DNA of 64,000 nucleotides from Thermofilaceae archaeon. GTDB lineage: Archaea > Thermoproteota > Thermoprotei > Thermofilales > Thermofilaceae. Under the pieces are notes generated by a model, which was not told where the DNA came from, ran no database searches, and saw only the letters and a program-made list of their open reading frames with translations. This document shows positions 53,739 through 58,092 of the stretch, in pieces; position 1 is the stretch's first letter, and the number at the start of each line of letters is the position of its first letter. The DNA is taken from positions 1 through 64,000 of the forward strand of contig JAWCCZ010000005.1 in NCBI GenBank assembly GCA_038861545.1, given 5' to 3'. The translations under genes were made by a program, and so were the position numbers.

Positions 53739-54017
53739 TTACTCAATTAACCTGGATACTGTGATAATATCTACTTGACTTACTCCAGCGACGTCAGCTA
53801 ATAGTTCTTCTAGATTTGTTGTACCTCCTTCGATGCTTTCAGGCATGGCTATCCAGAGATATATAGCGTTTATACCGAATGCTACTGGTTCAATTCTACT
53901 TTTCAAAACTTCATATAATTCTCGGGGAAGCTTACCTTTTACTGCTTCAATGATTTTCTCAGGCGGAGTATCTACATCATCTGGGAGAATTTTCACGATC
54001 GTTACCACCCGTGTCAT
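53739..54017 (-). CDS. ef1b: Translation elongation factor 1-beta
   Basis: VKILPDD, EPVAFGINA, EGGT..LEE and GVSQV. Start set to ATG 54017. Confidence 0.93.
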   Translation of the reverse strand: MTRVVTIVKILPDDVDTPPEKIIEAVKGKLPRELYEVLKSRIEPVAFGINAIYLWIAMPESIEGGTTNLEELLADVAGVSQVDIITVSRLIE

Positions 54018-54027
54018 GTTTATCCCC

Positions 54028-54204
54028 CTATGGACCTGCAAATCCACATTTAGGGCATTGGTATGTGTTACATTGTTTTCGACATTTCTCGCATCTCCAG
54101 ATCTCTACTTCACCGCAGTTAGGACAGCGAAATCTTACACCCCTCTCGTATGGTGCTATAGGTTTGTGACATGACGAGCAGAGTGGTATTTTAAGGCTAG
54201 TCAT
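54028..54204 (-). CDS. Small Zn-finger protein (DUF1610/HVO_2753-like; not in ORF track, 58 aa)
   Basis: Manual translation [58 protein letters not shown] with four CxxC motifs. Usual archaeal position upstream of EF-1beta. Confidence 0.92.
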
Positions 54205-54263: not shown

Positions 54264-54629
54264 TTAGATAATCACCAGTAGGGGTTCCCCCTGCTTCACA
54301 ACCATGCCTTCCTTAACAAATAACTCCTTTATAATTCCCTGTTTATTAGCTCTGACCTCTATCCTAGTTTTCATGGCTTCTAAAATCGCAATCGTATCAC
54401 CTTGCTCTACTTTATCTCCTACCTTTACTTTAATTTCAATAACTTTTCCAGTAATCGGTGCGTTAATAGCTCCCTCAATTCCACTGACCGTAGGCTCTGT
54501 AGAGACGCTTTTAACAACCCCGGTTTTTAGCGCTTGAAGTAAAACTTCTAAATCACTAGATCCTTCTTCTACTTCTACCTCAACATCGAATTCCTCGCCG
54601 TCTATTACTACCTTAAACCATCGTTTCAT
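54264..54629 (-). CDS. Biotin carboxyl carrier protein
   Basis: APITGKV, VKVGDKV and biotinylation motif LEAMKT. N-terminal FKVVIDGEEFDVEVE hairpin. Confidence 0.92.
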   Translation of the reverse strand: MKRWFKVVIDGEEFDVEVEVEEGSSDLEVLLQALKTGVVKSVSTEPTVSGIEGAINAPITGKVIEIKVKVGDKVEQGDTIAILEAMKTRIEVRANKQGIIKELFVKEGMVVKQGEPLLVII

Positions 54630-54799
54630 AAGTAGGCACCTTCAAAATCTGAACATGCTTCCAATTTTGCTATCAACCCCCAGAGTCTGGAAGCTGACTG
54701 CGAAGGCTTCTTAGATTTACTTTTTTGTCTAGAAGATAAAATGAAGCAGGTTACTGCCAATAAGGCCGCCAGCCTTCGCTGCTCTTCGTCTGTTTTCAA
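54626..54799 (-). CDS. Small carboxyltransferase accessory subunit (epsilon/delta-C-terminus-like; not in ORF track, 57 aa)
   Basis: Manual translation MKTDEEQRRLAALLAVTCFILSSRQKSKSKKPSQSASRLWGLIAKLEACSDFEGAYL. TTGA and ATGA overlaps couple it to both neighbours. Confidence 0.75.
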   Translation of the reverse strand: MKTDEEQRRLAALLAVTCFILSSRQKSKSKKPSQSASRLWGLIAKLEACSDFEGAYL

Positions 54800-56361
54800 A
54801 CAGGTGGCACCCCATGCTTTTTAGAAGGACAGGGTTTCCTCTCCCTTTTAGAGAGAAGGAAATTTAGAGTCTGTACTAATACGCTCCTTGTCTCGCTGGG
54901 GATTAGTACGTTATCAATGTATCCTCTACCTGCTGGAAAATATGGATTAGCAAACCTGCTTCTATACTCACTAACAAAGCTTTTGATTAACTCTTCTCTC
55001 TCTTCGGGATCGGCTTTTTCCAGCTTATTTTTATGTATAATTTCAACTGCTCCTTCAGGACCCATTACCGCTATTTCGGCACTTGGCCAAGCATAGACGA
55101 CGTCTGCTCCTAAATGTTTGCTTCCAAGAGCTATATATGCGCCTCCATAGGCTTTACGGATAATAACTGTTACTTTTGGTACTGTAGATTGCGCATAAGC
55201 ATGTATTATCTTTGCACCATGGCGTATAACGCCCCCATGTTCCTGAATCGTACCTGGCAGAAAGCCAGGTACATCTACAAAAGTGAACACCGGAATGTTA
55301 AACGCGTCACAAAACGTCACAAACCTCGCAATCTTATCCGAACTATTTATGTCCAAGCTACCGGCCATGAACGTAGGTTGATTAGCAACCACACCAACTA
55401 CGTAACCAGCGAGCCTCGCGAATCCTGTGATGGCATTTAACGCGAAGAGTTCTTGGACTTCAAAAAAAGATTCCCTATCGAATACTCGAGTAATGATTTC
55501 CCGCATGTCGTAGGGTTCCTCTGGATCGTCTGGTACTATACTGTTTAATGTTTCATCCTCTCTATTTGGATCATCCCCTGTATCCACGTACGGTGGATCC
55601 TCTAAGTTGTTCGACGGCAGATAACTCAGAAGTTTCTTTATTAGATAGATAGCATCCTTGTCATCATTCGTAACAAAGTGTGCTACACCGCTTTTTTCAG
55701 CATGTACTTCGGCTCCACCTAAGCTTTCAAACGTTACATCCTCGCCAGTAGCTGCTTTTACTACCTTAGGTCCTGTGATGAACATGTAACTGGTTTTCTT
55801 GACCATAATAATGAAGTCTGCTAAGGCTGGAGAGTAAACCGCACCGCCTGCACATGGACCCATTATTGCTACTATTTGAGGAACTACCCCGCTCGCCATC
55901 ACATTCCTATAGAATATTTCACCGTAGCCTTTAAGTGAATCAACTCCCTCTTGAATGCGCGCCCCTCCAGAGTCATTTAAACCTATAATAGGGATTCCTA
56001 GTTTCATAGCTAACTCTATTAAATGGGCTATCTTCATGCCATGCATTTCACCCACACTGCCACCCATGAACGTGAAATCTTGAGCATATACTGCAACTTT
56101 GCGTCCATTTACTTCGCCTATTCCGGTAATTACTCCATCTCCATAAGCTACCTTACTACTCATGTCCAGCTCTGTAGCTCTATGTGTGACCAGACACTCA
56201 AGCTCAACAAAAGTACCTTTATCGACTAAAAGCTCTACTCGTTCCCAAGCTGTAAGCTTGCCAGATTCATGCTGCTTTCTTATCCTATCGATGTCGCCTC
56301 CAAGCCTAATCCGTTCTTTAAACTGTTTGAGTTCTTCAACTCTGCGCAAATTAGCCTTCAC
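54796..56361 (-). CDS. Acyl-CoA carboxyltransferase (PccB/MmdA family)
   Basis: GKLTAWER, GDGVITG, QDFTFMGGS, DSGGARIQEG, GPCAGGAVYSPA, DVPGFLPG, RKAYGGAY and KKHG. Confidence 0.95.
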   Translation of the reverse strand: MKANLRRVEELKQFKERIRLGGDIDRIRKQHESGKLTAWERVELLVDKGTFVELECLVTHRATELDMSSKVAYGDGVITGIGEVNGRKVAVYAQDFTFMGGSVGEMHGMKIAHLIELAMKLGIPIIGLNDSGGARIQEGVDSLKGYGEIFYRNVMASGVVPQIVAIMGPCAGGAVYSPALADFIIMVKKTSYMFITGPKVVKAATGEDVTFESLGGAEVHAEKSGVAHFVTNDDKDAIYLIKKLLSYLPSNNLEDPPYVDTGDDPNREDETLNSIVPDDPEEPYDMREIITRVFDRESFFEVQELFALNAITGFARLAGYVVGVVANQPTFMAGSLDINSSDKIARFVTFCDAFNIPVFTFVDVPGFLPGTIQEHGGVIRHGAKIIHAYAQSTVPKVTVIIRKAYGGAYIALGSKHLGADVVYAWPSAEIAVMGPEGAVEIIHKNKLEKADPEEREELIKSFVSEYRSRFANPYFPAGRGYIDNVLIPSETRSVLVQTLNFLLSKRERKPCPSKKHGVPPV

Positions 56362-56984
56362 CTTATCTCATTAACCCAAACTTCATAGAAATTGGTTCCG
56401 ATCCTAACCTTAACTAATTTAGCTCCTTTGCTAGCCATTTCGCAGGCAAGTTTCAAATGCCTGAGCACTTTAGTAAGAAGCCCTTCGAGCATGGTTGTAT
56501 TGTCAAGCGACTTGAGGTATTCGTGCAAGAATTTCTCAGGTATATATCTGGCTTGCAGGTCAGGGGTATGAGTAAACTCGCAGGCAGTAGCTATAGCATT
56601 ATTCTTTCCAGTCGTGTCCAGCATTTTAAGACCTTTCAATGCAACATAAACTAAACCACCTTGAGTTACTACCTTTACGACTTTATTTGGAGGAATAGGA
56701 AGAGCTCGCCACGGTTTGTAAAATCGTTCACCAATTTGCACAGTACTTTGACCAGCCACTGCAGCTAAAACTGGTGCGCCGCAACGAAATACCAGTTCAC
56801 CTTCAACTTCTATTACCTCGTTACTTAGGCTGTTTCCAACTAGGGCATTGGATACAGCACATAGAAAAGGTTCAGTGGCTACACTGGTAGTTACTAGGCG
56901 GATGCCATTACCATCTAAAATCTCAAGTGTAACTCTACGAGATTCGACAAGCGACGGTAATGCTTTAGACTCTGAAAGCATCAA
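56358..56984 (-). CDS. Truncated PxpC/KipA (allophanate hydrolase subunit 2)-like protein with extra C-terminal region
   Basis: SNALVGN...VIEV, VLAAVAG, PWRAL and YVALKG resemble the CT_A_B/AHS2 domain. GTGA overlap with the carboxyltransferase gene. Confidence 0.6.
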   Translation of the reverse strand: MMLSESKALPSLVESRRVTLEILDGNGIRLVTTSVATEPFLCAVSNALVGNSLSNEVIEVEGELVFRCGAPVLAAVAGQSTVQIGERFYKPWRALPIPPNKVVKVVTQGGLVYVALKGLKMLDTTGKNNAIATACEFTHTPDLQARYIPEKFLHEYLKSLDNTTMLEGLLTKVLRHLKLACEMASKGAKLVKVRIGTNFYEVWVNEIR

Positions 56985-57039
56985 CGGGTTAGATAGCTAG
57001 GGATATAAAAGGAATTCTGATATGCTTCCGCCGTAAAAT

Positions 57040-58092
57040 TTAATTTAGATCTTCACGCTTCAGTTTATAGAAAGTTTCATGGGGCTCAGTCTGGTACCAG
57101 TATGCCACGCTGCTATAATCTGCTGCGACTTCATTCCACTCTCCGTGAGGTGCTACAACTTCAATATGCTGCTTAAAAGGTATAGGATCTGGAATGTGAA
57201 AACGATAAGCTGCTATCTCACCTCTCTCTTCATCTTTATGCAGAAGGCCGTGAAAGGGAGCCACGAATGTTCCTCCAGTAAAGTACCAACCTGAGAGGAA
57301 ATAATCCTCTGTACCTGTGGCACTATATGCGACCTCGCCATCAGCAAATATAGTTATGTTACCTTCAAGGAATCCCAATCCTCCAATTATAGGTCTTTTA
57401 AAGCTCAGACTACGCATAAACAAGTAAGTACCTACATAGTGACCCGTGCCACGAGATCTAAGCACGGTATAGGCTTCTCCCAGACTAGTCTCTTTTTCTC
57501 TATGCCATATAGCATGGAACCTTCCCATCTCTTCCACTTCGACGTTAGAGTAATAACCTATGATGTAATACAACGAAGAGACCTCTTCTACTCCTAGATT
57601 TTCGATTTCGATTCTAGCTTTCCTAAAGGGCATAGGCAAGTAACAGTAGAAACCGCCACTGCTTAATCCTAATGGCAAGGGGTGCGCGTTCTCAGTCAAT
57701 GATGGCTGAGGGGAAAAAGCCCTATGACCTTGTAAGAAAAAGTCTCCTAAGGGGGTTTCTATGCTAGGTTCGCCCTCGTTATCCCACCACGCCCTTAAAA
57801 TCACGTTCCGGAGAAACCTTCGATCAGCTGCACTTATAGTTATCCACATGCTTACAATTATCCCGGGTTCACTAAGCTTGAATATATCCAGTTTTTGTCC
57901 GGGTTCAATCGAATAATAGTCCAATCGCGCTCCCTTTTCAATTTGACGTATTAAACCTCTCTTTCCCCAGTGTTCTAACCATTCTCTAGGAAGCTTATCC
58001 CGTATATTTGTTACCTCCTCCTCAGAAAGTGTATGTGTACTAGATACGTATTTCATTTTACCTTGCTTAAGCTTTGGAAGGTCTGTAAGCAT
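57040..58092 (-). CDS. DUF2961 / glycoside hydrolase family 172 protein
   Basis: GIIVSMWIT, LRAWWDNEGEPSIETPLGDFF, CYLPMPF, GHYVG, FLEG, GTEDYF, YRFHIPDPIPF and SSVAYWYQ. Confidence 0.88.
   Translation of the reverse strand: MLTDLPKLKQGKMKYVSSTHTLSEEEVTNIRDKLPREWLEHWGKRGLIRQIEKGARLDYYSIEPGQKLDIFKLSEPGIIVSMWITISAADRRFLRNVILRAWWDNEGEPSIETPLGDFFLQGHRAFSPQPSLTENAHPLPLGLSSGGFYCYLPMPFRKARIEIENLGVEEVSSLYYIIGYYSNVEVEEMGRFHAIWHREKETSLGEAYTVLRSRGTGHYVGTYLFMRSLSFKRPIIGGLGFLEGNITIFADGEVAYSATGTEDYFLSGWYFTGGTFVAPFHGLLHKDEERGEIAAYRFHIPDPIPFKQHIEVVAPHGEWNEVAADYSSVAYWYQTEPHETFYKLKREDLN

Follow-up and report, generated by a model that had tools for sequence, protein, structure and literature searches.

Which enzyme does a carboxyltransferase (CT) serve when it is encoded together with a biotin carrier and a PxpC-like protein, and no biotin carboxylase (BC) or membrane pump subunit lies next to them? 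This question is raised by four minus-strand open reading frames (ORFs) at positions 54264-56984 of a 64,000-nucleotide stretch, here called the window, which comprises positions 1 to 64,000 of contig JAWCCZ010000005.1 of a Thermofilaceae archaeon (assembly GCA_038861545.1). Our analysis indicates that the four genes probably encode the CT, a small epsilon-like subunit, the biotin carboxyl carrier protein (BCCP) and a PxpC-derived accessory subunit, here called X, of a conventional ATP- and BC-dependent acyl-CoA carboxylase. In their order along the minus strand, the genes are:

56358..56984, minus strand: X, an accessory protein resembling PxpC/KipA subdomain A (208 residues from a TTG start; an alternative ATG at 56981 gives 207 residues)
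54796..56361, minus strand: CT, a carboxyltransferase beta subunit of the PccB/AccD5 type (521 residues; PF01039, TIGR01117)
54626..54799, minus strand: candidate small subunit of 57 residues (ORF; relatives have an ORF of the same layout between CT and BCCP)
54264..54629, minus strand: BCCP (121 residues; PF00364), with the biotinyl-lysine K87 at 54369-54371

Enzyme class and the biotin carboxylase gene

A preliminary description of the locus, made from the letters alone, had recognised four coupled genes that include a PccB/MmdA-type CT and a biotin carrier, and both the coordinates and the family assignments withstand closer analysis. Three 4-nucleotide start/stop overlaps (GTGA, TTGA and ATGA) join the genes, with the stop codon of X overlapping the start codon of CT. 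In Pfam and NCBIfam scans, CT reaches 652 bits against PF01039 and 802 bits against TIGR01117; its nearest solved structures are PccB of T. maritima (1VRG, 699 bits), the S. tokodaii protein 1X0U (645 bits) and 1XNW, and AccD5 of the LCC complex is matched at 561 bits. CT is a crotonase-fold carboxyltransferase of the PccB/AccD type. BCCP matches PF00364 at 69.5 bits and carries the AMK biotinylation motif of a biotinyl carrier ('EAMKT', K87). From residue 5 onwards it aligns to residues 497-613 of the beta subunit of a two-subunit pyruvate carboxylase (5KS8_C), including the segment before the biotinyl domain; further alignments were obtained with models of OadA and PycB. In enzymes of these types (pyruvate carboxylase beta, OadA/PycB), the segment that precedes the biotinyl domain is part of a BT/PT-like interaction module. 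Taken by themselves, residues 1-50 of BCCP and residues 156-208 of X gave no meaningful match in the PDB.

The preliminary description had also stated that no BC, OadB or PxpB gene is adjacent, which is correct for the locus; for BC it does not extend to the genome. The genome-wide search that it had proposed for BC, OadB, PxpA/PxpB and the biotin ligase was carried out on the window's assembly (1.63 Mb, 12 contigs, 92 % complete). One BC of 490 residues is encoded on contig 3 (G000:C3:149933-151405); it has the domains Biotin_carb_N, ATP-grasp and Biotin_carb_C, and its gene stands between two unrelated ones, for TYW3 and an NTPase. The genome further holds one biotin-protein ligase, one Carboxyl_trans gene, which is the CT, and one biotinyl (Biotin_lipoyl) domain, which is that of BCCP; as the sole BC and the sole biotinyl carrier, the two must work together. 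No match was found in this genome to OAD_beta (PF03977), to PYC_OADA (PF02436; the 5S/OadA/PycB type), to PxpB (PF02682), to PxpA (PF03746), or to a second CT_A_B domain besides X. Within the order, each of the 27 high-quality genomes has a single BC gene; OadB occurs in none of the 41 genomes, complete ones included, and PxpB is equally absent from all 41. A biotin transporter has been reported in T. pendens, and among Crenarchaeota a Na+-translocating decarboxylase only in Staphylothermus (PMC2678158); both reports fit the census here.

Synteny places the BC gene still closer to the operon. Twenty related genomes supplied contexts of about 18 kb for a tblastn comparison with the window's proteins; nearly all of them showed the gene order X, CT, short gap or small ORF, BCCP, and X proved to be conserved beside the CT gene across relatives. 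In the case of Thermofilum pendens, genus-level relatives have the cluster too. A BC orthologue (47-57 % identical) lies inside the cluster at seven loci (L029, L031-L034, L041, L046), where it either follows BCCP directly or stands next to X in divergent orientation. Within the family of the window, BC has moved 38-45 kb from the cluster in complete genomes, or onto another contig; in other lineages it lies 20-45 kb off. An ATP-grasp BC is thus available to the carrier, and since the genome has a single BC, a single BCCP and a single CT, since BC joins the cluster in sister families, and since OadB, a 5S-type subunit, PxpA and PxpB are missing, we conclude that the operon is part of a BC-dependent acyl-CoA carboxylase whose BC gene is dispersed.

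The Sulfolobales possess a three-subunit acetyl-CoA/propionyl-CoA carboxylase composed of AccC, AccB and PccB. The system described here resembles it in having BC, BCCP and a PccB-type CT as separate polypeptides (645 bits for the window's CT against 1X0U). It differs in its two additional conserved genes, X and the 57-residue ORF, in the dispersal of BC within the window's family, and in belonging to an order that lacks methylmalonyl-CoA mutase and offers no fit to the known propionate or 3-hydroxypropionate contexts. Likeness to the MmdABCD and OadABG decarboxylases consists of an MmdA-like CT, whose 802 bits against TIGR01117 stay under the 999-bit cut-off of that model, and of a carrier whose N-terminal hairpin is one typically seen in MmdC/OadA; the differences are the lack of a beta pump subunit in the 41 genomes of the order, a hydrophobic stretch of only about 12 residues in the small protein, and the presence of BC.

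Other biotin enzymes were considered and rejected. The absence of PF03977 from the genome and from all 41 genomes of the order speaks against a Na+-pump decarboxylase, the lack of any PF02436 match in the genome (92 % complete) against a transcarboxylase (12S, 5S and 1.3S), and the lack of a second biotinyl domain there against a pyruvate carboxylase.

Fold, conservation and hairpin of X

The 208-residue protein had been described as AHS2/PxpC-like, and this identity is now supported by both sequence and predicted structure. Against PF02626 (CT_A_B, formerly AHS2), X scores 27.3 bits, above the gathering cut-off of 25, and the match spans profile positions 4-94 of 261 only. Its AlphaFold model is very confident (predicted local distance difference test, pLDDT, 91.6; predicted template modelling score, pTM, 0.86) and shows a beta-sandwich (17-136), short helices, a long helix (163-185) and a hairpin (189-204). 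Three segments matter for what follows:

56577..56936, minus strand: X residues 17-136, predicted beta-sandwich corresponding to PxpC subdomain A, with the SNALVGN motif (N46, G50, N51); from predicted secondary structure, invariant columns and structural alignment
56373..56498, minus strand: X residues 163-204, predicted family-specific long helix (163-185) and beta-hairpin (189-204; KLVKVRIGTNFYEVWV); from conservation and the model
54573..54620, minus strand: BCCP residues 4-19, putative N-terminal beta-hairpin motif WFKVVIDGEEFDVEVE; kept in 21 relatives and alignable with the hairpin of X

The significant Foldseek matches of the model are exclusively of the PxpC/KipA type (TTHA0988, urea carboxylase/amidolyase, MSMEG_0435 and YbgJK). 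In VIA-align, MSMEG_0435 (3MML_A) ranks first, with Z 17.0 and a root-mean-square deviation of 2.5 Å over 134 residues, so that X has a fold homologous to that protein; 5DUD_C (Z 15.4) and 3VA7 (Z 15.1) come next, and unrelated cupins reach a Z of about 6. The alignment runs through subdomain A only (134 residues against chain residues 2-266), and X lacks the two-subdomain organisation of PxpC. A long-form relative from a genome with BC in the cluster (P0020; pLDDT 90.2) is predicted to have the full PxpC fold (Z 23-24 over 252-268 residues); its residues 157-266 form a cyclophilin-like subdomain, after which come the helix and hairpin that X also has. Because this long form carries the complete fold plus helix and hairpin, the models indicate that in the ancestor the partner already combined a full PxpC-like protein with the extra hairpin, and that the window's lineage deleted subdomain B while keeping subdomain A and the C-terminal module.

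With PxpC of the PxpABC system (E. coli YbgK, 5DUD), KipA and the A-B domains of urea carboxylase (3VA7), X shares PF02626, an N-x-L-V-G-N motif and the fold of subdomain A (Z 15.1-15.4). It differs from them in having no PxpA or PxpB in the genome, no subdomain B, and a profile match limited to the positions given above. A role of X as a component of 5-oxoprolinase or urea carboxylase is ruled out by the absent PxpA/PxpB and the missing subdomain B. The earlier idea of a repurposed PxpC-derived protein without PxpB gains strength from the absence of PxpB from the whole order and from the conservation of X beside CT.

How widely is this protein distributed? A word-index search retrieved 5 relatives only; searching 1.84 billion representatives exhaustively with a profile returned about 36 family-specific X proteins, in short forms of about 190-223 residues and long forms of about 305-316 residues, followed by generic PxpC proteins that match residues 30-117 only. 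Fusions of X to CT or BCCP were not seen among these 1.84 billion representatives. Public records label the relatives 'hypothetical protein', and the three relatives with a named locus come from metagenome-assembled genomes (MAGs) assigned to Thermofilaceae, Thermofilales and Thermoprotei. Of the 120 genomes of the class, 46 contain X and 50 contain CT; X accompanies CT in about 45 of the 50 CT-bearing genomes, nearly always as the gene just upstream of it, and is present in all 22 genomes of the window's family. X without a CT hit is seen in one genome only, a MAG of 52 % completeness. The C-terminal helix and hairpin form the most conserved part of the family (motif RGAKLVRVxVGxxxYEAWVEE); G187 and A188 never vary, and W203 and E206 hardly ever do.

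The loci of the two CT-bearing families that have no X, f2 and f10, are arranged differently. In f2 (L070, L071), CT is followed by a BCCP with a diverged N-terminus, and no recognisable counterpart of the 57-residue ORF is present; in f10 (L072, L073), BC and BCCP are convergent with CT. The data hint at a joint gain or loss of X, of the small ORF and of the canonical hairpin of the carrier.

The preliminary description had further noticed that the C-terminus of X mirrors the N-terminal hairpin of the carrier, and profile comparison bears this out. The two consensus sequences are KLVRVRVGGxxYEAWVEE for X and KKFRVTIDGExYEVEVEV for BCCP. An hhalign comparison of 18 X C-termini with 21 BCCP N-termini aligned 14 columns with a score of 22.8 (P 3.7e-5), a score reached by none of 200 column shuffles (mean 8.2, standard deviation 1.9, maximum 17.3). 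At the level of sequence profiles, the likeness is beyond chance. A regular-expression scan of the genome for further copies recovered only that of BCCP, with a pattern too strict even for X.

In order to judge what such a protein may do on a carboxylase, the mycobacterial MSMEG_0435 is the precedent to consider. According to a cryo-EM study of 2026 (PMC13012033), this PxpC homologue, which is present in structure 9YX5, attaches directly to AccD5; it takes hold of two BCCP domains, keeps one biotin sequestered and thereby acts with a lowered propionyl-CoA carboxylase activity as the outcome. The PxpB homologue MSMEG_0436, with which it is paired, lies further out and makes no contact with the CT core. 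The study detected urea carboxylase activity in neither protein of the pair MSMEG_0435-0436, and it reports that MSMEG_0435 rises in stationary phase only. Both MSMEG_0435 and X are PxpC-type proteins of homologous fold (Z 17.0 for the window's X, Z 23.2 for the long form) and both are tied to a PccB/AccD5-type CT and BCCP, the tie of X being deduced from genomics. Unlike X, for which no PxpB exists anywhere in the order, MSMEG_0435 works in complex with a PxpB homologue; it has both subdomains A and B, whereas the window's X lacks B and has an extra C-terminal hairpin; and the study does not describe its gene as standing beside a CT gene in an operon, whereas X is translationally coupled to one. 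Taken together, conservation, structure prediction and the MSMEG_0435 precedent support a repurposed PxpC-derived subunit that would dock via the shared hairpin, as the preliminary description had suggested for one of its variants.

The 57-residue protein and the surroundings of the operon

The gap between CT and BCCP is filled by an ORF of 49-87 residues in all 18 X-bearing loci examined. Members of this family share a hydrophobic N-terminal helix, a basic linker and a C-terminal sxW[RK]LAx[RK]L[DE] whose Trp is invariant; in the window's 57-residue protein these are represented by the helix RRLAALLAVTCFIL, its basic linker and the motif 'LWGLIAKLE' with the invariant W40. Compared with its nearest relative, the ORF differs at 13, 7 and 27 first, second and third codon positions, counts that are approximate owing to a gapped alignment. 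Because the differences fall mostly at third codon positions, the ORF reads as a real, conserved small protein. It had been called unannotated, and it is indeed conserved and without annotation: homology searches gave no match in Pfam, NCBIfam, the PDB or the ESM Atlas. Pfam scans of 18 members at E up to 10 found no carboxylase-related family, and a profile of the small proteins run against all PDB chains gave chance hits only (E above 0.7).

A comparison with the epsilon subunits AccE and PccE (AccE in 9YX1; PMC13012033) suggests itself. The N-terminal helix of AccE is enclosed by an eight-stranded barrel of beta-hairpins from four BC-BCCP linkers, and its C-terminal helices plug into the CT hexamer (PMC13012033). 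The 57-residue protein is likewise a small, predicted helical protein encoded beside the CT gene, with the helix-linker-helix layout of a tether; it shows no sequence similarity to AccE/PccE, whether in Pfam scans to E 10 or in the PDB profile search. Since similarity to known epsilon subunits is absent, we call it epsilon-like by position and architecture only. With about 12 residues, its hydrophobic stretch is too short for a typical membrane anchor.

A related motif was seen at the C-terminus of BC. The tail of the contig 3 gene product (G000:C3:149933-151405 = L005:7934-9406, minus strand) reads 'DAWKLASRLFP' and belongs to a motif xW[KR][LV]xx[RK][ILV] that is kept in most lineages examined. 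Compared with the C-terminal motif of the 57-residue family by hhalign, the tail scores 27.4 (P 2.6e-5), a value reached by 3 of 150 shuffles. The two may share a docking peptide, a likeness that is suggestive only.

The operon has a promoter-like element of its own:

57003..57010, minus strand: putative TATA-like box TTTTATAT, read from the sequence, about 20 nucleotides upstream of the X start codon

This element stands past the stop codon of the preceding DUF2961 gene, and given the overlaps between the genes and its presence upstream, the four genes look like one translationally coupled, probably leaderless, transcription unit of their own. The directly upstream neighbour encodes a DUF2961 protein of 350 residues (57040-58092, minus strand; PF11175 at 225 bits), with the TATA-like box between it and the operon; the same neighbour stands beside the operon in the sister genus (L044, L045) and not in remoter relatives. 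Downstream of the carrier, a 58-residue HVO_2753-like double zinc-finger protein (PF07754; 54028-54204, minus strand) overlaps the start of the EF-1-beta gene (53739-54047, minus strand), and this pair is likewise syntenic with the operon in the sister genus.

Assembly, rival explanations and physiology

On this basis we propose that the BC from the single unlinked gene on contig 3 would carboxylate biotin on K87 of the carrier, and that CT, as a PccB-type hexamer, would pass the carboxyl group to a short acyl-CoA. X would be non-catalytic: a PxpC/KipA relic that kept subdomain A, lost the cyclophilin-like subdomain B, has no PxpB/PxpA partner, and gained a conserved C-terminal helix and a hairpin resembling the N-terminal hairpin of the carrier. 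It would sit on the CT/BCCP part of the holoenzyme, as MSMEG_0435 sits on AccD5. The hairpins of X and BCCP might then pack around helices of the 57-residue protein and/or of the BC tail, forming a BT-like tether assembled in trans, which could hold the separately encoded subunits together or tune the access of the carrier to CT. In its fullest form, the proposal is that Thermofilales-type archaea have a five-component acyl-CoA carboxylase whose BC-CT bridging (BT-like) module is built in trans from the hairpins of X and the carrier around helices of the 57-residue protein and/or the BC tail; this we regard as possible, with the balance tilted towards doubt.

Several observations weigh against our interpretation. 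CT occurs without X in families f2 and f10 only, in five genomes, and X is therefore dispensable for this enzyme class. In a genome of family f5 (G028, 99 % complete), a long-form X lies at C5:163676-164494, with CT and BC on C1, which is the one clear exception to the linkage. Searches of Pfam, of the PDB by profile and of the Atlas revealed no sequence similarity between the 57-residue family and AccE, PccE or OadG. Having lost subdomain B, X could lack a contact of the AccD5 type, and we infer the assembly of X, the 57-residue protein and the unlinked BC with CT and BCCP from genomics. Finally, the substrate proposed below is a guess reached by elimination.

Some of these points bear on whether X holds the enzyme together or restrains it. 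X could be a negative regulator of the MSMEG_0435 type and not a tether, displacing BCCP from CT, sequestering the carrier or its biotin and damping activity under some conditions, a view that we find unlikely while giving it real weight. The best structural match of X has exactly that function (PMC13012033), the BCCP-like hairpin of X could compete with the carrier hairpin for one docking site, and the enzyme occurs without X in f2 and f10; homology to MSMEG_0435 and the lineages without X thus argue for X as a modulator. The translational coupling argues for a stoichiometric subunit: as the first gene of a coupled operon, X is probably co-produced with the enzyme and not expressed conditionally, whereas MSMEG_0435 rises in stationary phase only (PMC13012033). 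Moreover, since X lacks subdomain B and PxpB is absent from the order, the biotin site of the urea-carboxylase type may be gone. That X has no functional relation to the carboxylase, being a mere conserved neighbour or a decaying PxpC pseudo-enzyme, is very improbable. The link between the two does rest on genomics, Pfam covers one third of the domain only, and public records call the members 'hypothetical protein'; yet X is kept in all 22 genomes of its family and in most of the class, strictly together with CT, and its stop codon overlaps the CT start. The C-terminal module of helix and hairpin, in which G187 and A188 never vary, is the most conserved part of the family, and the model of X is very confident (pLDDT 91.6). 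All of this is a poor fit to decay.

The preliminary description itself had put forward, as a possibility, a BC-independent soluble complex, either a transcarboxylase-like shuttle between a PccB-type and a PxpC-type CT or a soluble decarboxylase, and this we consider scarcely credible. What had suggested it is real: in this genome the neighbours of the operon include no BC, OadB or PxpB gene, CT scores high against the mmdA model, and full-length relatives of X keep the complete PxpC fold. A canonical BC elsewhere in the genome, which that description had named as evidence against its own idea, is nevertheless what the census found; it is single, conserved, placed inside the cluster in sister lineages, and has no carrier besides this BCCP. 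X has also lost subdomain B and has no PxpB to supply subdomains C and D, there is neither a 5S/OadA-type nor a membrane beta subunit, OadB being absent throughout the order, and no mutase exists to provide methylmalonyl-CoA. The acyl-CoA carboxylase with a dispersed BC gene and X as an accessory subunit thus accounts for the locus with fair probability.

As for physiology, methylmalonyl-CoA mutase was found in none of the 41 genomes of the order, and the enzyme therefore cannot serve the route from propionyl-CoA to succinyl-CoA. By elimination, acetyl-CoA would be the likeliest substrate, which we offer as a default guess.

A link of PxpC/KipA-type proteins with acyl-CoA carboxylases first came to light in mycobacteria, in 2026; here it is hard-wired in an operon across a whole archaeal order. 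The pairing appears in a minimal form, with no PxpB, no cyclophilin-like subdomain in the window's family and an added carrier-like hairpin, which makes these archaea a simple and thermostable system in which the role of PxpC-type proteins on carboxylases can be studied. A family known as 'hypothetical protein' thereby receives a context. The findings also raise a metabolic question, namely why heterotrophs without methylmalonyl-CoA mutase universally keep a PccB-type acyl-CoA carboxylase. Should the module assembled in trans prove true, the partnership between PxpC and carboxylases would be ancient, present in both prokaryotic domains, and able to turn an accessory protein into a constitutive structural subunit.

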